Below, piece by piece: positions 2,244-46,077 of a stretch of 64,000 bases of DNA. The notes under the pieces are model-generated. The model was not told the DNA's origin and did no database searches. It was given only the letters and a program-made list of their open reading frames with translations. The position numbers were made by a program, and so were the translations under genes. This DNA comes from an uncultured Acidimicrobiales bacterium (GTDB lineage: Bacteria; Actinomycetota; Acidimicrobiia; Acidimicrobiales; DATKAS01), in NCBI GenBank assembly GCA_963726495.1, contig CAVSCP010000009.1:157112-221111 (forward strand). The letters run 5' to 3'. Positions within the stretch are counted from its first letter, which is position 1; each line of letters starts with the position of its first letter.

Positions 2244-3128
2244 ATGGAGCACGTGCGGTGGTCGTCGCGACCCCGCCTTCGCACGCCTGTCGTGATCGCC
2301 GCGTTCGCAGGATGGAACGACGCGGGCGAGGCGGCATCGAACGCCGGTCACCATCTCGCCGACGTGTGGGCGACACGGCCGTTCGCGACGATCGACGCGG
2401 AAGACTTCTACGACTTCAGCTCGACGCGACCGCACGTGCGGCTCGTCGACGGCGGACAACGCGAGATCGTGTGGCCGATCAACGAGCTCTCGGCGTCGTC
2501 GGTGCTCGGCGCCGACATGGACGTCGTGCTGCTGATCGGCACCGAGCCTCAGCTGAAGTGGCGCACGTTCTGCTCCGAGGTGCTCGAGGTCGTGACCGAG
2601 CTGAACGCTCGCATGCTCATCACGCTCGGCGCGCTGCTCGCCGAGGTCCCGCACTCACGGCCCGTCTCGGTGATCGGCACCGCCGCCGATCCCACGCTCA
2701 TCGAGCAACACGGCCTGCAGCGCTCCCGCTACGAAGGCCCGACCGGCATCGTCGGTGCGTTGCACGATGCGTGCAACACCGCCGGGCTGCCGTCGCTCTC
2801 GCTGTGGGCCGCGGTGCCCGCCTACGTGCAGGGAGCGCCCTCGCCGAAGGCGGCACTCGCCCTCGTCGAACGGGTTGGCGACGTGCTCGACCTCATGATC
2901 CCGACGACTGCACTCGAGATCGCCTCGGCCGCCTACGAGCGCGAGGTCGATGAGGTCGTCACGAACGACGACGAGCTGTCCGGCTACGTGCGCCGCTTGG
3001 AAGACATGGTCGACAGCGGCGAGCCCTTCGGCGACGACGACGAGGACGAAGCGATCAGCGCCGACGACACGGTCGACGAGCTCGTCGAGGAGCTCGAGCG
3101 GTTCCTGCGCGATCAGCAAGGCGACTGA
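2244..3128 (+). CDS. PAC2 family (proteasome assembly chaperone-like) protein
   Basis: AFAGWNDAGEAAS, DFYDF..RP, GTEPQLKW, LGALLAEVPHSRP, YEGPTGIVG, WAAVP.Y, ELVEELERFLR. Confidence 0.9.
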   Translation: MEHVRWSSRPRLRTPVVIAAFAGWNDAGEAASNAGHHLADVWATRPFATIDAEDFYDFSSTRPHVRLVDGGQREIVWPINELSASSVLGADMDVVLLIGTEPQLKWRTFCSEVLEVVTELNARMLITLGALLAEVPHSRPVSVIGTAADPTLIEQHGLQRSRYEGPTGIVGALHDACNTAGLPSLSLWAAVPAYVQGAPSPKAALALVERVGDVLDLMIPTTALEIASAAYEREVDEVVTNDDELSGYVRRLEDMVDSGEPFGDDDEDEAISADDTVDELVEELERFLRDQQGD

Positions 3129-3157
3129 CATGACGCTCGTACCGAGCGGCGGCTGAC

Positions 3158-3628
3158 ATGGCGCTCGTGCCGAGCTGCGTGTGGAAGGCGACGCCCCAGC
3201 TGATCATCGCCCTCGACGAACGCTTCGGTGAGCCGGTCGACGCGTACGTGAACGGATCGCAGGTCTGGATCCGCGACGACGGCCCCGGTGGAGCGGCGCT
3301 CGAATGGCGCTTGCATCCGATCGCTGGCTACTCACGCCCGACCGCGGTCGACACCTACGAGGTCTTCTCGGTCACTGCTCTCGCGCTCGCCAACGGCGAG
3401 GCGCCACCTGCGCCCCTCGATCAGCTCTGGGACGGCCTCGAGGCGTTCCCGACCGAAGGCGACGAGATCGAGCCGGCACCACTCGCCGCCGCGGTTGCCG
3501 ACGCGCTCGGCATCGCGCCCGACGCCGCGGGGCTCGTCGACCACGACCGTGTCGGCGACGCCTGGGAGATGAGTCAGGGCAGCGTGTCGATCATCGACGC
3601 GTTGCTGCAGCAGCTCTCCGCGGGCTGA
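3158..3628 (+). CDS. Hypothetical protein
   Basis: 156-aa ORF with normal codon usage, directly downstream of PAC2. Confidence 0.7.
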   Translation: MALVPSCVWKATPQLIIALDERFGEPVDAYVNGSQVWIRDDGPGGAALEWRLHPIAGYSRPTAVDTYEVFSVTALALANGEAPPAPLDQLWDGLEAFPTEGDEIEPAPLAAAVADALGIAPDAAGLVDHDRVGDAWEMSQGSVSIIDALLQQLSAG

Positions 3629-18050: not shown

Positions 18051-20902
<2,852 letters not shown>

Positions 20903-20974: not shown

Positions 20975-22438
20975 GTGGGGTCTGACGAGAAGCGCATCGT
21001 GGTGGTCGGGGCCGGAGTGGCCGGGTTGGGCGCCGCCCTGGCGCTGAGCAGGGACGGACACCAGGTCACGCTGCTCGAACGCGACGCCACCCCCTTGCCA
21101 CCCGATCCGAGCTCCGCGTTCGAGTGGGACCGGCGGGGCGCTCCCCAGGTCCGCCACAGCCACGCGTTCCTCGCCCGGCTGTACAACCTGCTGCGCACCT
21201 CGTATCCCGACGTGCTCGCCGACCTCCTCGCGGCCGGCGCGACCGAGATCCGCATGGCCGAGAACCTGCCGCCCACGATGACCGACTGGACCCCGCGTCC
21301 CGGCGACGAGGAGCTCGTGATGCTCGCCTGTCGGCGCACGACGTTCGAGTGGGTGCTCCGGCGGTCGGTGCTCGCGAGCCCGAGGTGCTCGATTCGCGAC
21401 GGCGTCGCCGCTGAGGGGTTGCTCGGCTCACCGGGCGCCGACGGCATCCCGGTGGTGACCGGCGTGCGCACGAGTGCGGGCGACTTCCCGGCCGACCTCA
21501 CGGTCGTGGCCGGCGGACGACGCTCGACCCTCCCCGACTGGCTCGCCGAGATCGGCGCCGATCCCGTGCCCGAAGAGGTCGAGGACACCGGGATCGTCTA
21601 CTACTCACGCTTCTACGAGCTGCTCCCCGGCGCGGAGCCCCCGCCGCGAGACGGCCCCATCGGCGGCGACCTCGGGTATCTCAAGTACGCGATCTTCCAG
21701 GGCGACAACGGCACGTTCTCGATCACGCTCGCGACGCCCACCGACGACTCCTTGTTGCGCGGCGCGCTGTCGACGATCGACGCGTTCGACACGACGGCGG
21801 CGGTGCTGCCCGCCACGAAGGCGTGGGTCGATCCCGCGATCTCGCGCCCGATCACCGACGTGCACTTGATGGCGGGGTTGCTCAACCGGCTGCGCACCTA
21901 CGTCGTCGACGGGCGCCCGCTCGCTCTCGGAGTGCATGCCCTCGGCGACGCCAGCGTGTGCACGAACCCGCTCTACGGGCGTGGGTGCTCCACCGGCTTC
22001 TGGCACGCGCATCTGCTCGCCGGCGTCCTACGTGAGCATCCCGACGACCTGATGGCGCAAGCACTCGAGCTCCACGCGCTCACCGACGAGCACCTGCTTC
22101 CGTGGTACCGCTCGTCGGTGGTGCAAGACGCCGAGGCGAGGCGCATCGCGGCCGCAATGCTGGCGGGCGAGGACATCGACGATCCCGAAGATCCCCGTTC
22201 GTTCATGCGCTCGGTGCTGCGCGAAGGGCTCGCACCGGCGATGCGCACCGATCCCGAGGTGTACCGGGCGTTCGTGCGCACGTTCAACCTGTTGCTCCCG
22301 CCCGAGACGCTGATGAGCGACGCCGACATCGGCGCGCGCGTGCTGGCCGTGTGGAACGACAGAGAGAACCGTCCGCCCGAGCCGGTGCTGGGGCCGCCGC
22401 GGCCCGAGCTGCTCGAGGCGCTGGGGCTCGCTGCTTAG
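20975..22438 (+). CDS. FAD-dependent oxidoreductase/monooxygenase
   Basis: VVGAGVAG, PQVRHSH, LGDASVCTNPLYGRGCS. Confidence 0.85.
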   Translation: MGSDEKRIVVVGAGVAGLGAALALSRDGHQVTLLERDATPLPPDPSSAFEWDRRGAPQVRHSHAFLARLYNLLRTSYPDVLADLLAAGATEIRMAENLPPTMTDWTPRPGDEELVMLACRRTTFEWVLRRSVLASPRCSIRDGVAAEGLLGSPGADGIPVVTGVRTSAGDFPADLTVVAGGRRSTLPDWLAEIGADPVPEEVEDTGIVYYSRFYELLPGAEPPPRDGPIGGDLGYLKYAIFQGDNGTFSITLATPTDDSLLRGALSTIDAFDTTAAVLPATKAWVDPAISRPITDVHLMAGLLNRLRTYVVDGRPLALGVHALGDASVCTNPLYGRGCSTGFWHAHLLAGVLREHPDDLMAQALELHALTDEHLLPWYRSSVVQDAEARRIAAAMLAGEDIDDPEDPRSFMRSVLREGLAPAMRTDPEVYRAFVRTFNLLLPPETLMSDADIGARVLAVWNDRENRPPEPVLGPPRPELLEALGLAA

Positions 22439-22453
22439 CGGTTGGTCAGCGGG

Positions 22454-22729
22454 TCAGCCGCCGGCGACCGCGGGGATGATCGACACCGTCTCGCCGTCGG
22501 GCACCGGCGTGTCGAGGCCCTGCAGGAAGCGCACGTCGTCGTCGGCGACGAACAGGTTCACGAAGCGACGCAGGTTGCCGTCGTCGTCGAAGATGCGTGA
22601 GCGGAAGCCCGGATGCGCAGCTTCGAGGTTGTCGAGCACCTCTGCCAGCGTGGCGCCTTCGACCTTGACCTCGGAAACACCGCCGGTCGCGGGACGCAGC
22701 GTGGTGGGGACTCGCACGGTGACGCTCAT
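22454..22729 (-). CDS. MoaD/ThiS (CysO/SAMP-like) ubiquitin-fold sulfur carrier
   Basis: LRRFVNLFV.DDDVRFLQGLDT, C-terminal IIPAVAGG. Confidence 0.9.
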   Translation of the reverse strand: MSVTVRVPTTLRPATGGVSEVKVEGATLAEVLDNLEAAHPGFRSRIFDDDGNLRRFVNLFVADDDVRFLQGLDTPVPDGETVSIIPAVAGG

Positions 22730-22763
22730 CGGGGGCGCAGCGTAGCGGCCCCATCGCGCTCCA

Positions 22764-22863
22764 ACTGTGGCGTTTGAGGCGATCGCACTCCCGCACCACA
22801 GTGTCCGCCCGATCACGCCCCGGACTGTGGCGTTTGAGCGCAATCCGCACTGTCACGCCACAG
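22764..22863. repeat. Two REP-like imperfect palindromes (about 40 bp, period 60 bp)
   Basis: ACTGTGGCGTTTGAG...CCACAGT at 22764-22802 and ACTGTGGCGTTTGAG...ACGCCACAG at 22824-22863. Confidence 0.8.
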
Positions 22864-23788
22864 CCGCTCGCAGCGGAGGATACACCTTCTCGACGGACCG
22901 GCAGAAGCGCTCGGGATCTTGCTGATCGGCCCACAGTGCGTAGAGCACCTCCCAGCTCTCGGCCGCGAGCCAGAAGTCACGCGCGTGGTCTCGACGCCGG
23001 TTCCGGTCGCCCCCATGACCCTTCGCCCCCGAAGGCTCGACGGCGAGACCGACCTCTGGCCAAGCGAGGTCGAGGTACGCGACTCGAGTGCCGCCGGTCT
23101 CGCACACCTTGTGCTGTCGCACGGGTGGAGGAAGCACCGAGCTCACGAGCAGACGCTCGACGAGCCGTTCGAACCAGCTGTCGGGCAACGCGCCCGAACG
23201 GTCAGGCAGGTCGAAGATGCGTCGCAAGGTCGCGGTGCCGCTCGGGCCGGGGCGATCGACCCGCGACAAGGTCTCCCGGATCCAACGCTCGCTGGCGCCC
23301 CGGCGCAGCGCGTCGTCGAGCGCTTGCTCGACCTTGTCTTGCGACGCGACCGCGCCGAGGTCGCACAGCGTTCGCGCGATGTTCGTGCAAGGGATGCCGT
23401 CCACCTTCGTGAGGTCGCATCGGTCGAGCACTGCAACGCGGTGGACGACATAGCCCGGCGCCCGAAGGTGTCGCTGCGAAACGACGCTCACATCGAGGAA
23501 GCCCGGTTGGAGCCCGTCGAGCTCGTGCAAAGCGCCCGCTGCCCGGAACGACGCCACGCCATCGCCCCGCGCGCTGAGGGTCGGGATGACGAGCTGTTGC
23601 CGCCATGTCTTCGGCGCGGCCGTGAACACGAGCACCCCAGGAATCGGTTCTGACAACACCCCGGACCGAATGCGCGCCGCGATCACCTTCGTGGACATCC
23701 CAAGTGAGGCGGCCTGGCGTCTGCCGAAAGCACTGTGTTGCGAGGCCGCAAGCGCAGCCACAGCGCGCTCGGCGCCGGCCGCATCCAT
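22853..23788 (-). CDS. AbiEi-type wHTH plus DUF559/Vsr-like endonuclease-fold protein
   Basis: N-terminal LAASQHSAF.RRQA..LG; middle GIPCTNIARTLCDL; C-terminal DSWFE...LPPPVRQ..V...YLDLAWPEVGLAVE.SG..GH...D.ARD..L...WEVL. Confidence 0.8.
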   Translation of the reverse strand: MDAAGAERAVAALAASQHSAFGRRQAASLGMSTKVIAARIRSGVLSEPIPGVLVFTAAPKTWRQQLVIPTLSARGDGVASFRAAGALHELDGLQPGFLDVSVVSQRHLRAPGYVVHRVAVLDRCDLTKVDGIPCTNIARTLCDLGAVASQDKVEQALDDALRRGASERWIRETLSRVDRPGPSGTATLRRIFDLPDRSGALPDSWFERLVERLLVSSVLPPPVRQHKVCETGGTRVAYLDLAWPEVGLAVEPSGAKGHGGDRNRRRDHARDFWLAAESWEVLYALWADQQDPERFCRSVEKVYPPLRAAVA

Positions 23789-23797
23789 GCACGTGTG

Positions 23798-23818
23798 AGC
23801 GTACGAAGGGGTGTGACA
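23798..23818 (-). promoter_or_regulatory. PafBC/RecA-NDp-like promoter motif (spacer 1 nt short)
   Basis: Minus strand TGTC-acaccccttcg-TACGCT (N11), 9 nt before the ATG. Confidence 0.5.
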
Positions 23819-23848
23819 TTTCCCGACAGACCGGTCAATGACCGGACC

Positions 23849-23964
23849 ACTTGTACCGGCAGACGCCCGAACGGGCATCCACAGGTACAAGTCGGCGGGA
23901 GGATTCGATCGGCCGCGACGACTTGAACCCGCAGACGCCCAAATGGGCACTCACCGGTACAAGT
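23849..23964. repeat. Two REP-like imperfect palindromes (44 bp, period 72 bp)
   Basis: ACTTGTACCGGCAGACGCCCGAACGGGCATCCACAGGTACAAGT at 23849-23892 and ACTTGAACCCGCAGACGCCCAAATGGGCACTCACCGGTACAAGT at 23921-23964. Confidence 0.85.
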
Positions 23965-24043
23965 GCCCGGCGGCGAGGGAGAACGGCGCTGCTGGAGGGG
24001 GAGCGCCTTGCGGGATGGACGTGTCGCAAGGGACCATGGCGCC

Positions 24044-24949
24044 GTGCCAGCCCCCGTGGTGCGCGCGTTCCACTACCGCGCGTTCGACCTGCCGCGCCTC
24101 GTCGAGGCCAAGCGCGAGACGACGATCTCGGTGTGCTTGCCCGCGCGCGACGAGGAGGACACGGTCGGCGAGATCGTCGAGCTGATCCAGCACGAGCTCG
24201 TGGAGCGGTGCCCGCTCGTCGACGAGATCCTCGTGATCGACGACCGCTCGATCGACGGCACCGCGAAGGTCGCGGCAGATGCAGGCGCCCGGGTCGTGAG
24301 CACCGAGGAGGTGCTGCCCGACTTCGACGACCTCGGCGGCAAGGGCGACGCGCTGTGGCGATCGGTGTTCGCTGCGGACGGCGACGTCATCGTCTGGTGC
24401 GACGCGGACATCCGCAACTTCGGCCCGCGGTTCGTCATCGGCCTCGTCGGTCCGCTGCTGATGCGCAACGACGTCGACTTCGTGAAGGGCTACTACGACC
24501 GCCCGCTCGACGGTCGCCATGGCGAGGGAGGACGAGTCACCGAGCTCGTCGCTCGGCCGCTCGTGTCGCTCCTCTTCCCGCACCTGTCGACGATCATCCA
24601 GCCGCTCGGAGGCGAGTACGCCGGGCGCCGCGAGATCCTCGAGCAGCTGCCCTTCGCGACGGGCTACGGCGTCGACCTCGCGCTGCTGATCGACATCAGC
24701 GCGCGGTTCGGGCTGGACTCGATCGCGCAGGTCGACCTCGGCACTCGCATCCACCGCAATCGCTCGCTGGATGAGCTGTCACCGCAGTCGATGGCGATCA
24801 TGCAGACGGTCTTGGCCCGCTCCGGCCTCACGCTGCCGCAAGGCCCGGCCCGGCCGCTCGTGCGCCCGGGATTCGAGCCCGTGCTGGTCGAGACGATCGA
24901 CCGGCCACCGCTCATCGAGCTCGCTGCCTACCGCCGACGCAGCGCCTGA
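24044..24949 (+). CDS. gpgS: Glucosyl-3-phosphoglycerate synthase
   Basis: ISVCLPARDEE.TVG, GKGDALW, DAD, VKGYYDRP, GGRVTELVARP, QPLGGEYAGRR, GYGVD, HRNRSL.EL..S. Confidence 0.88.
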   Translation: MPAPVVRAFHYRAFDLPRLVEAKRETTISVCLPARDEEDTVGEIVELIQHELVERCPLVDEILVIDDRSIDGTAKVAADAGARVVSTEEVLPDFDDLGGKGDALWRSVFAADGDVIVWCDADIRNFGPRFVIGLVGPLLMRNDVDFVKGYYDRPLDGRHGEGGRVTELVARPLVSLLFPHLSTIIQPLGGEYAGRREILEQLPFATGYGVDLALLIDISARFGLDSIAQVDLGTRIHRNRSLDELSPQSMAIMQTVLARSGLTLPQGPARPLVRPGFEPVLVETIDRPPLIELAAYRRRSA

Positions 24950-24970
24950 CCTCAGGGGTACGCTTCCCCC

Positions 24971-25183
24971 GTGGGTCAAGTCGAACCGCGCAAGCCGCAG
25001 CACCCGGAAAAGCCGTCGTTCCCCGCGGGGATGGTCGTCGTCGGAGTCCTCGCCGTGCTCGGCGCGCTCTGGCTGCTTCGCTTCGTCACCGGCCTGCTGT
25101 TCACCGGCGTGAAGCTCGCGTTGATCGGCATCGTCGTCTACGCCGCGGTGCGGCTGGCGATGGGCCCGCGCGACCGCCGCTAG
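24971..25183 (+). CDS. Small membrane protein
   Basis: Two hydrophobic segments; TACGCT 6 nt before GTG. Confidence 0.6.
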   Translation: MGQVEPRKPQHPEKPSFPAGMVVVGVLAVLGALWLLRFVTGLLFTGVKLALIGIVVYAAVRLAMGPRDRR

Positions 25184-25192
25184 CAACGGTCG

Positions 25193-26185
25193 CTAGCGCT
25201 TCAGCCGCTCGGCCACCACTTCTTCGATGCACACGACGGTGTCGGCCATCGCGCGCTCGCGCCCGAACCGTGCGACGAGCGACACCGCGTCGACACGCTC
25301 GTCGCAGCCGTCGAAGACCTCACCGGCGACGACGAGCGCGGGCACACCGAGTGAGGCCGCGAGGTCGACCACCCCGCCGACGACCTTCCCGTCGAACGAC
25401 TGCGCGTCGACGAACCCTTCGCCGGTGACGACGAGATCGGCGCCTTCGATCGCGTCGGCGAGGTCGGTCTCGTTCGCGACGAGCTCGAACCCCGAGACGA
25501 GCTGCGCACCGATCGCCGCAAGGCCGCCCGCGAGACCGCCCGCCGCGCCACTGCTCTCGATCTCACGCACGTCGACGCCGTAGTCCTCCAGGTAGATCTG
25601 CGCGAGGCGCTCGAGACGACGCCGCAGCAGCTCGACCTGCGCGGGAGTCGCGCCCTTCTGCGGGCCGAACACGGCAGCTGCGTCGACGAACAGGGTGCGC
25701 ACGTCGCAGGCGACCAACATCTCGATGCCGCGCAGCCGGGCCGGCGGGAACATCGCTCGCAGCGCGCCCAGGCCGCCGTCGGTCGTCGCCGAGCCGCCCA
25801 CTCCGACGATCACCCGGTTCGCTCCTGCCTCGAGCGCGGCCGCGATGAGCTCGCCGGTGCCGTGCGTCGACGCCGCCACGGGGTCGTTGCCCTCGGCGCC
25901 CCCGACGAGGGCAAGGCCCGACGCGCGCGCCATCTCGATGACCGCGGTGCGCTTCGTGAGCCTCCACTCGGCGTCGACCTGATCGCCGAGCGGACCCATC
26001 ACCGTGGTGCGACGGTTCGGGCCACCCAGCGCGTCGAGGGTGCCCTCGCCGCCGTCGGCCATCGGACGCGCGTCGCACTCGGCGCCGGTGCGCGCGGCAG
26101 CGCGACACACCGCGGCGGCAGCCTCGGCCGCGGTGGCGGTGCCCCGGAACTTGTCGATGGCGGCCACGACGCGCACGCCGCCCAT
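25193..26185 (-). CDS. Glycerate kinase (GlxK/GarK family)
   Basis: DKFRGT, ADGGEGT, IEMARASGL, GVGGSATTDGG, FGPQKGA, GAAGG, TGEG..D.QS..GK. Confidence 0.9.
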   Translation of the reverse strand: MGGVRVVAAIDKFRGTATAAEAAAAVCRAAARTGAECDARPMADGGEGTLDALGGPNRRTTVMGPLGDQVDAEWRLTKRTAVIEMARASGLALVGGAEGNDPVAASTHGTGELIAAALEAGANRVIVGVGGSATTDGGLGALRAMFPPARLRGIEMLVACDVRTLFVDAAAVFGPQKGATPAQVELLRRRLERLAQIYLEDYGVDVREIESSGAAGGLAGGLAAIGAQLVSGFELVANETDLADAIEGADLVVTGEGFVDAQSFDGKVVGGVVDLAASLGVPALVVAGEVFDGCDERVDAVSLVARFGRERAMADTVVCIEEVVAERLKR

Positions 26186-44540: not shown

Positions 44541-45914
44541 TCACCAAGCGGCGGCCTCGACGTCACCGCGCACTCCGACGAGGTCGAGCGCGTCGGCGAG
44601 CGTCGCGGCGCGCAACAGCACGGGGGCCTCGACCGACGCCGGCGCGGACTGCGGCACGACGAGCTGTTCGAAGCCGAGTCGCCGCGCCTCGGCCACGCGC
44701 CGTGGTGTCTGCGCGACTTGGCGGAGCTCGCCGGCGAGACCGACTTCACCGAGAGCGACGAGATCGGGCGGCAGCGCGTGCCCCGACACGGCCGACACGA
44801 GTGCGAGCGCGATGCCGAGATCTGAGCCCGGCTCGGTCACCCGCACGCCACCCACCACCGAGACGTAGACATCGAGGCCCGCGAGGCTGACCCCGACTCG
44901 CTGCTCGAGCACCGCGACCAAGAACGCCAGCCTGCCGGGGTCGACGCCCTGCGCCGAGCGGCGAGGACCGCCGGGGCCCGCGGACGCCACCAACGCCTGC
45001 ACCTCGACGAGCAGCGGACGGTTGCCGTCGACGGTCGGCACGACGATCGAACCGGCGACACCAGACCGCCGATCCGCGAGGAACAGCGCGCTCGGGTCGG
45101 GCACGCCGATCAGGCCCTGCTCCCCCATCTCGAACAGGCCGAGCTCGTCGGTCGAGCCGAAGCGATGCTTCAGCGCGCGCAAGAGCCGCAACGCGTGGTG
45201 CCGATCGCCGCCGAACGAGAGCACCGTGTCGACCGCGTGCTCGAGCACGCGCGGGCCGGCGATCTCGTTCTCCTTCGTGACGTGGCCGACGAGCACAGTC
45301 GCGGTCTGGCGGCGCTTCGTCGCCTCGATGAGCTGCTGCGCGCAGCCGCGCACCTGGTTCACCGTGCCGGGCGTGGTGCCGAGCTCGGAGTCGTGCATCG
45401 TCTGCACGGAGTCGACGACCACGAAGTCGGGATCGACCGAGTCGATCAACGCGACGATGCCCTTGACGTCGCTCTCGGCCGAGAACCACAGCCCGTCGAC
45501 CAGCGCGTCGACGCGTGCAGCGCGGCCCTGCACCTGCGCGGCCGACTCCTCTCCCGACATGTAGAGGCACCGCGCACCGCTGCGCGCGACCGAGGCCGCG
45601 GCCTGCAACAGCAACGTGGACTTGCCGACGCCCGGCTCGCCGCCGACGAGCGTCACCGAGCCAGCGACGAGCCCTCCGCCCAGCACACGGTCGAGCTCGC
45701 TGACGCCGGTCGGCCGCGGCTTCCATTGCGTCGGGTCGACCTGCGTGATCGGCAACGGCGCCTCGACGGCGAAGGCGGCCGCGGCGGCCGCTCGCACGGG
45801 CTCGGCCTCTTCGACCAGCGTGTTCCACTCGCCGCACCCGGGGCACCGCCCCGCCCATTGGTGGGCGTGCGTGCCGCAGTCGGTGCACGAGAAGACGGTG
45901 CGTTGGCGAGCCAT
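44541..45914 (-). CDS. radA: DNA repair protein RadA/Sms
   Basis: C4 zinc finger, GEPGVGKST, DSVQT, GHVTK, KHRFG, GEVGLAGE. Confidence 0.96.
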   Translation of the reverse strand: MARQRTVFSCTDCGTHAHQWAGRCPGCGEWNTLVEEAEPVRAAAAAAFAVEAPLPITQVDPTQWKPRPTGVSELDRVLGGGLVAGSVTLVGGEPGVGKSTLLLQAAASVARSGARCLYMSGEESAAQVQGRAARVDALVDGLWFSAESDVKGIVALIDSVDPDFVVVDSVQTMHDSELGTTPGTVNQVRGCAQQLIEATKRRQTATVLVGHVTKENEIAGPRVLEHAVDTVLSFGGDRHHALRLLRALKHRFGSTDELGLFEMGEQGLIGVPDPSALFLADRRSGVAGSIVVPTVDGNRPLLVEVQALVASAGPGGPRRSAQGVDPGRLAFLVAVLEQRVGVSLAGLDVYVSVVGGVRVTEPGSDLGIALALVSAVSGHALPPDLVALGEVGLAGELRQVAQTPRRVAEARRLGFEQLVVPQSAPASVEAPVLLRAATLADALDLVGVRGDVEAAAW

Positions 45915-45921
45915 GTCCGCG

Positions 45922-45943
45922 ACGGTACGAGGGGGGTGGGACA
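45922..45943 (-). promoter_or_regulatory. PafBC/RecA-NDp-type DNA-damage promoter of radA
   Basis: Minus strand TGTC-N12-TACCGT, 7 nt before the ATG (leaderless spacing). Confidence 0.7.
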
Positions 45944-46077
45944 TTCCCGGGGATGTCGGCGAGGCGGCGCGGGCATCTGACGACGCTCGAAGGGACTCAG
46001 GTCCAAGTCCCGATCGGTGGCGGATCGCCGCCGACTCAGCCGAGCACGTCCCGAGAGGGCGGCGAGGAACGCTGCGG

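Follow-up and report, generated by a model that had tools for sequence, protein, structure and literature searches.

A candidate association of AbiEi-Vsr-like proteins with REP-like palindromes in an Acidimicrobiales genus

In the genome of an uncultured Acidimicrobiales bacterium, a gene for a 311-amino-acid (aa) protein lies between a MoaD/SAMP1-like ThiS-fold gene and gpgS, with two tandem palindromes on either side. The protein joins an AbiEi-type winged helix-turn-helix (wHTH) module to a Vsr-like nuclease domain, and the palindromes (pair A downstream of the gene, pair B upstream; Table 1) resemble repetitive extragenic palindromic (REP) elements. The locus is part of a stretch of 64,000 nucleotides (nt), referred to here as the window (G000:C9:157112-221111), from the source genome G000 (3.85 Mb, 69% G+C, 11 contigs, rated 65% complete), which was compared within a set of 11 genomes of the genus (G000-G010, 57-96% complete). 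The question raised by this locus is whether such palindromes are tied to the gene that they flank, and in what way. To our knowledge, the way in which REP-type palindromes arise has been worked out only for genomes with a RAYT transposase, mainly in Proteobacteria, and is open in most other phyla. An unrelated DNA-binding nuclease paired with lineage-specific palindromes bears on how REPs originate outside RAYT-bearing lineages, and the question can be tested here because several gene-palindrome pairs coexist per genome and close relatives offer natural gene-loss contrasts.

The reading that we favor, with a probability of roughly 55%, is that this is a family of sequence-specific DNA-binding nucleases in which each lineage is coupled to its own REP-like hairpin, which would act as an operator and also occur as dispersed copies that depend on the protein. 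A literature search found no description linking the AbiEi-Vsr protein family with REP-like palindromes. Such a coupling would give a possible role to the very common, uncharacterized "AbiEi plus DUF559" proteins of Actinobacteria and place them in the PafBC DNA-damage regulon.

Palindrome types and their matching genes

A search of G000 for the inner GCCCGAWCGGGC hairpin of pair B, followed by nhmmer, recovered the B architecture at further loci, often as doublets 69-72 nt apart. Covariance model R1 finds 16 elements at 11 loci at E <= 0.006, 13 of which were used to build the model and 3 of which are new, so these palindromes are not unique to the window. Among the 13 copies, pairing is kept in 91.3% of stem cells, both sides have changed in 5 of the 15 pairs, and 0/500 shuffles reach the covariation score. 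No conserved spacer or larger unit resembling a miniature inverted-repeat transposable element was found around the B doublets, whose spacers and flanks are unconserved. An Rfam scan of window positions 21500-25500 at E <= 10 returned nothing relevant, and the RAYT family PF01797 has no match in G000, itself 65% complete. Broader surveys were less specific: a generic search for palindromes (8-bp stem plus inner hairpin) gave too much noise, with 1172 matches in the real genome versus 571 and 626 in two shuffles, and clustering by arm sequence returned mostly GC-rich coding stems, making a filter for AT-richer arms necessary.

The nuclease family itself is multi-copy, with a match in 31 of 41 genomes of the order and 4-11 matches in each of the 10 other genomes of the genus. 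In G000, four members are each bracketed by their own palindrome type (B, T2, T1 and T5; Table 1), and each type also has solo copies. Around orthologues and paralogues the hairpins have the same design but widely differing stems. Their usual place is some tens of bases before the start; a position overlapping or closely following the stop is also frequent, and several loci carry near-identical copies on both sides of the gene. From genome to genome, a type remains linked to its paralogue lineage, as illustrated by the GTTTGCTCAC type, which is found at L032, L033, L035, L038 and G000:C5:267004. A preliminary description of the locus had suggested a test of whether its two palindrome families co-locate with paralogues of the gene. 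The paralogues are linked to palindromes, but each to a type of its own and not to the same two families.

With a perfect stem of at least 9 bp no more than 130 nt from the gene ends as the criterion, hairpins are present at 9/15 subfamily loci and 11/14 distant paralogue loci in the genus and at 13/21 loci from other genera of the order. In these three locus sets there are 2.4-4.2 hairpins per kb near the gene ends versus 0.24-0.47 per kb in the far flanks. Additional loci from other Acidimicrobiia have a hairpin in 9 of 12 cases. Since orthologous loci are not independent, the counts overstate the sample size within the genus. Could it be that REP-like hairpins and dispensable selfish genes simply accumulate side by side in variable intergenic spots, without any specific link to each other? 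Such a hairpin stands at the 3' end of 196/1982 predicted G000 genes (9.9%) anyway, and G005 and G008 have a DUF222-HNH gene where G000 has a B element. This explanation is nevertheless very improbable given that in three separate locus sets the density of hairpins at gene ends is raised 5- to 17-fold, that the type is conserved with the paralogue lineage (five loci for the GTTTGCTCAC type), and that a single gene can have near-identical copies on either side.

Dependence of the dispersed copies on the matching gene is supported mainly by the abundance of two palindrome types, B and T2, which across the 11 genomes follows the presence of a close orthologue of that gene. B-type elements were counted as R1 matches on both strands at E <= 0.01, which gives 29 in G000 versus 32 at E <= 1. 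The other genomes have 34 (G008), 28 (G004), 17 (G002), 7 (G010), 6 (G005), 4 (G009), 2 (G007 and G001 each) and 0 (G003 and G006). The orthologue of the B gene is 91% identical to that of G000 in G008, 73% in G004, where it is broken, 70% in G003, where the flanking hairpins are of another type, and 60% in G002, and G005 has only a remnant. T2 elements number 25 in both G003 and G005, 15 in G000, 11 in G004 and 5 in both G009 and G002, with at most one in each of G006, G008, G001, G007 and G010. Identities of the T2-gene orthologue are 99% in G005, 93% in G004, 81% in G003, 75% in G009 and 70% in G006 and G008. The distance from G000 is much the same for G003 and G008 (flanks 83-86% alike), yet their B/T2 patterns are opposite. 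In G005, a close relative from which the B gene has been lost but not the T2 gene, B elements are few and T2 elements numerous.

Individual B loci also turn over between genomes. Nine of 13 B loci in G004 match a G000 B locus and 4/13 are at places where G000 has none; in G008, 2/8 are shared with G000, 4/8 are specific to G008 and 2/8 could not be resolved. G005 has a B doublet at one locus shared with G000 and no B element at 5/5 G000 loci checked, where the interval is a gap of 8-28 nt or is occupied by other genes.

A simpler explanation is regulation only: the upstream palindromes would be an operator for autorepression and the downstream one a terminator, the look-alikes elsewhere would be ordinary REP-type terminators spread in some other way, and abundance would reflect shared ancestry. 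Several observations fit this. The closest folds to the N-terminal part of the protein are AbiEi proteins (6y8q, 1zel), the palindromes at many loci end just before the promoter, the paralogues are syntenic and mostly vertically inherited, and solo copies of the palindrome types, judged by the distance to the preceding stop codon, lie mostly directly behind stop codons. It leaves unexplained, however, the opposite B and T2 abundances in G003 and G008 and the scarcity of B elements in G005, as well as the fact that the type flanking each paralogue on both sides is its own and not the commonest of the genome. We regard regulation alone as rather unlikely.

An AbiEi module, a Vsr-like domain and a PafBC-type promoter

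The protein consists of an AbiEi-type wHTH and AbiEi C-domain (approximately residues 1-175), a linker, and a Vsr/DUF559/MTES_1575-like nuclease domain (approximately 220-300). The first part is matched by Pfam AbiEi_4 (E 5.7e-6, 26.8 bits versus a cut-off of 25) and by PADLOC AbiEi profiles (residues 6-174, 1.1e-27), while no NCBIfam family covers the protein. An AlphaFold (AF2) model was made from 36 homologues (predicted local distance difference test score, pLDDT, 90.2). Foldseek aligns the N-terminal two thirds of this model with the AbiEi structure 6y8q (chain A, E 9.8e-6, 198 aligned columns, chain of 195 residues) and with Rv2827c (1zel_A, E 9.8e-5). The last ~100 residues align with the Vsr-type nuclease folds I-Bth0305I (3r3p), NGO0050 (3hrl) and PvuRts1I, at probabilities of 0.99 for 3r3p_B (template modeling score, TM, 0.72 on the target; root-mean-square deviation 3.1), 0.96 for 3hrl and 0.99 for 4oq2; TM values normalized to the target are 0.65-0.72 for this domain. 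The profile of the nuclease family matches 3r3p weakly (E 0.0066), and some homologues are annotated with PF18741 in a precomputed table. MTES_1575 was described by Anantharaman et al. (PMC3710099) as a novel Vsr-type restriction-endonuclease domain.

Is the nuclease domain likely to be active? Catalysis had been doubted at first on the ground that the usual ExDG motif reads EPSG here (VEPSGAKGH in full). That doubt is not supported: the D of this motif varies across the nuclease family and "EPSG" is therefore no sign of decay. D240, H258 and D267 are invariant among 36 sequences and E251 is present in at least 90%; the protein has all four, which are the putative catalytic residues.

Compared with the AbiEi antitoxins of Streptococcus agalactiae (6y8q) and Mycobacterium tuberculosis (Rv2827c), the likeness extends over the N-terminal 175-195 residues in both profile and fold and includes inverted repeats beside the gene's own promoter. 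AbiEi proteins repress their own promoters through inverted repeats. The present family differs in that the AbiEii partner is missing and a nuclease domain is fused instead, and in that its palindromes are hairpin elements of 38-49 nt that also occur far from the gene. As had been proposed, the gene sits between moaD and gpgS with neither an AbiEii (DUF1814) nucleotidyltransferase gene nor a transposase next to it, so that, with the MoaD-like gene and gpgS as its neighbors, it does not belong to an AbiE pair. The Vsr/DUF559/MTES_1575 proteins, I-Bth0305I and NGO0050 share with it the C-terminal fold, a weak profile match and conserved acidic and histidine residues, but here the domain is fused to a full AbiEi module and is not located in an intron, intein or phage.

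The gene is preceded by TGTCAC (23818-23813), 9 nt, TACGCT (23803-23798) and a further 9 nt to the ATG at 23788, so close that its mRNA is probably leaderless or nearly so. PafBC promoters are described as having a -26 element and no -35 (PMC8635444, PMC6789036), with the consensus tGTCgg(N10)tA(N3)T given in PMC8635444. By its agreement with this consensus, the promoter is of the PafBC class (RecA-nondependent promoter, RecA-NDp): it has the -26 GTC element and the -10 TAnnnT and no -35, with a spacing of N9 at the nuclease gene versus N10. The gene would then be damage-inducible. In the genus, nearly every family member has ahead of its start a motif of the form GGGAATGTC[ACG]CACCCC, followed by a TAnnnT box and ~9 nt. 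The pattern has 28 matches in G000 versus 6.3 expected, and the genes behind it include recA (C5:18765-19850, TGTCAC-N10-TACGGT), radA (window 44541-45945, - strand, promoter near 45945, TGTCCC-N10-TACCGT), comM/dprA, rmuC, a PD-(D/E)XK nuclease, an SNase, an HNH gene and two DUF222 genes. G000 also has a tandem pair of WYL genes. We know of no report that the AbiEi-Vsr nuclease family belongs to the PafBC regulon.

At many family loci only 3-31 nt separate the upstream palindrome from the -26 element, a fitting position for an operator; in the window, the edge of B1 is ~30 nt upstream of this element. On this basis the favored coupling can be broken down into steps. The wHTH module probably binds the outer arms of its own palindrome, the step in which we have most confidence. 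The promoter-proximal copies would then plausibly serve as an operator for autorepression, as in AbiEi, and hold down a damage-induced nuclease. More tentatively, the dispersed copies might be made or maintained by a process that depends on the protein, for example a break by the nuclease followed by repair or gene conversion. Dispersal of that kind, equally tentative, would make the system a functional analogue of RAYT-REP on an unrelated fold.

The moaD-gpgS site, mobility and known systems

The nuclease gene is present between moaD and gpgS in 6/11 genomes of the genus, is a remnant in 1/11 and is absent from 4/11. It is syntenic in G008, G004, G003, G002 and G007. The G004 copy has two TGA stops and a frameshift, and the G005 remnant consists of the promoter, the first ~45 nt and a downstream hairpin. 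Gene-less sites take two forms: a solo palindrome in G001 and G009, and intervals of 95 and 84 nt with no palindrome in G010 and G006. The expectation of an empty site in relatives was thus borne out. Gene and flanks do not always agree in identity to G000. In G008 the gene is 91% identical and the flanks 86-88%, and in G004 the gene is 69% identical and the flanks 96-98%, a mismatch that suggests allele replacement.

Could the palindromes instead be targets of a homing-type selfish nuclease that cuts REPs already in place, its gene being copied into them or next to them and thereby becoming bracketed? By both profile and fold, the nearest match of the nuclease domain is the homing endonuclease I-Bth0305I, the site in G001 and G009 has a solo palindrome and no gene, and the identity mismatch in G008 and G004 would fit allele replacement by recombination. 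On the other hand, no recent gene copies at new loci were found, the genes of G002 and G007 have no upstream palindrome, and the empty sites of G010 and G006 have no palindrome either. We judge homing improbable. A near-identical pair of loci in G009, L016 and L024, was considered as a recent transposition and rejected, as the 92% identity continues through all flanks fetched; the pair is a larger duplication or a redundant contig.

Several points weigh against the favored coupling of each nuclease lineage to its own operator and protein-dependent copies. The abundance comparison rests on 11 related, incomplete genomes and was made without phylogenetic correction; G004 has as many B elements as G000 in spite of its broken gene, and G002 has some B elements although its orthologue is only 60% identical. 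A plain-pattern B count across the genus was noisy, with 5-17 control matches per genome, and served only as a cross-check by eye. Pair A is specific to G000. Hairpins around family genes are inverted at some loci and direct at others, and their enrichment partly reflects intergenic position. The match of the protein to Pfam MTES_1575 is below threshold (12.4 bits versus a cut-off of 38.2). No target-site duplication was seen at the sites of REP insertion or deletion, and the paralogues lie at conserved syntenic loci across the genus, with mostly vertical inheritance. The B doublets are tandem, with both members best on the same strand, and not inverted as in REP doublet forming hairpins (REPINs).

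How does the proposed coupling compare with the RAYT-REP/REPIN systems of Proteobacteria? Both have a gene flanked by its own hairpin palindromes, with about one gene copy per type, the same palindromes dispersed between genes, mostly vertical inheritance of the gene, and palindrome abundance tied to it. The protein here, however, is an AbiEi wHTH plus Vsr-like nuclease and not an HUH/Y1 transposase, so the likeness is functional only. Copy numbers are also low here (3-25 per type), several gene-palindrome pairs share a genome, the doublets are tandem, and the promoter is predicted to be damage-inducible. The idea of a REP-associated mobile or selfish module, put forward in the preliminary description, survives in part: REP-like palindromes are attached to a wHTH plus Vsr-like protein, but transposition of the gene is not supported: no target duplication was seen, and the paralogues at conserved loci speak against recent movement of the nuclease gene. 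It is conceivable, though we would not wager on it, that Acidimicrobiia hold a second class of REP-associated enzyme that lacks HUH, in which damage-induced AbiEi-wHTH/Vsr-nuclease lineages recognize, regulate themselves through, and create or maintain their own palindromes, with several pairs co-evolving per genome.

Another point of comparison is the REP13E12/DUF222-HNH group of selfish nuclease genes of Actinobacteria, which are likewise multi-copy, dispensable nucleases in the same kind of variable intergenic site but belong to another protein family. In G000 such DUF222-HNH genes have a PafBC-type promoter too (L130, L134). The site of a single B palindrome at G000 C8:888763 carries a 1.28-kb insert in G005 (L096, G005:C2:26415-28100) and in G008 (L097, G008:C2:1213848-1215528); in G005 the insert contains a 13E12-type gene, whose 405-aa DUF222-like product has an HNH motif.

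Design of the palindromes and further features of the window

All four palindromes described earlier are present in the sequence at the positions claimed, including the end of B2 at 23964, and the stop codon of the gene is indeed supplied by the second downstream palindrome (Table 1).

Table 1. Features of the moaD-gpgS locus in window coordinates, and palindrome types of G000 with the family members that they bracket
Feature	Position	Strand	Remarks
Nuclease gene, 311-aa protein	22853-23788	-	ATG at 23788, TGA at 22853-22855
Palindrome A1, degenerate copy (ACTGTGGCG...CACCACAGT; ACTGTGG...CCACAGT)	22764-22802	.	downstream of nuclease gene; DNA fold alone z -0.83
Palindrome A2	22824-22863	.	arm formed by last codons of nuclease gene and TGA stop (22853-22855); z -3.96
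Promoter, PafBC (RecA-NDp) type	23798-23820	-	upstream of nuclease gene ATG
Palindrome B1 (ACTTGTACC...GCCCGAACGGGC...GGTACAAGT)	23849-23892	.	genome-wide REP-like family; model R1 66 bits; z -3.41
Palindrome B2	23921-23964	.	tandem copy of B1, between nuclease promoter and gpgS; model R1 58.3 bits
Type B	nuclease locus in window		in G000, 16 elements at 11 loci
Type T2 (GATTGATGA...)	around C5:150543-151496		in G000, 15 matches genome-wide
Type T1	around C5:242134		in G000, 3 copies, one of them away from the gene
Type T5 (GTTTGCTCAC...)	around C5:267004-267612		in G000, 8 copies, 6 of them elsewhere

Members of pair A have their first 15 nt in common and start 60 nt apart; B1 and B2 are 83% identical over the surrounding 48 nt and start 72 nt apart. 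When single elements were folded as DNA, only 1/200 shuffles folded as well as A2, and the same is true of B1. A1 (36/200 shuffles as good) and B2 (z -0.99, 38/200) do not stand out and are counted as palindrome copies only because they are alike to A2 and B1. Both pairs follow a common design, an outer stem with an ACT start and an AGT end around an inner GC hairpin. At C6:492632 and C2:444619 an A-type outer stem, the same as that of A1, is joined to a B-type core, which identifies A and B as variants of one design. The earlier account of two distinct pairs is thus right in that there are two tandem pairs, but both are of one architecture.

The B1-B2 doublet is also present at the orthologous loci of G008 and G004, where of pair A only the arm encoding the last codons is kept. 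Model R1 has a weak match related to A2 at L010:1464-1514 (13.8 bits, E 0.13). A third hairpin type (GAAGTCGAGT...GCGCGCCCAAACGGGCGCGC...CAACTTCG) adjoins B doublets at G000:C8:391170-391220 and C8:472590-472640, and is also found downstream of the nuclease gene or its remnant in G002 and G007 (L014, L015) and G005 (L040). This suggests that B doublets and the third type form composite clusters like bacterial interspersed mosaic elements.

Other sequences adjoin B elements as well. Relative to G004, G000 has an extra 888 nt next to a B element at C10:229509-230397, with a cupin-like open reading frame (ORF; by eye from the translation), and relative to G008 an extra 684 nt at C6:492689-493373 with a 221-aa ORF. 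Both are gene-sized insertions or deletions abutting palindromes. Beside the B doublet at C8:7479xx lies a stretch of ~100 nt that is 94-99% conserved across the genus (G000:C8:748028-748128, L003 ~3128-3228) and is probably a tRNA gene. At the site of this doublet, G005 has 1.17 kb of different sequence between the ~100-nt stretch and the upstream flank, with an ORF that by eye resembles a membrane protein, and its match to the downstream flank is ~9 kb further on.

The promoter class seen at the nuclease gene, in the form GGGAATGTCxCACCCC-N-TAnnnT, stands before radA and at ~23 other G000 sites. It may outline a LexA-independent damage regulon in this Acidimicrobiales genome.

The gene next to the B pair is identified as gpgS by NCBIfam PRK13915 (367 bits versus a cut-off of 262). 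Directly before it, at ~23995-24040, is a conserved hairpin (CCTTGCGG...CGCAAGG) that occupies the same place in L040-L044. Every genome of the genus that was inspected has it, whether or not the nuclease gene is present, and it may be a leader or regulatory element of gpgS. On the other side of the locus, an 808-aa ORF (18385-20811, - strand) has a normal GroEL start followed by an arginine-rich tail, suggestive of a frameshift, a misassembly or a run-on frame.

Parts of the window are covered by public soil metagenome contigs. Contigs from two RNA libraries, X10 and X11, which seem to be a single data set deposited twice, match parts of the nuclease gene and the B region with 88-97% likeness, which is no proof of transcription. 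In one soil-metagenome contig (run X1), positions 22756-22878 are replaced by 49 other letters, so that 22755 is joined to 22879, and the loose ends of this variant are similar to the site as it is in G005. Alleles lacking the A palindromes therefore exist in nature.

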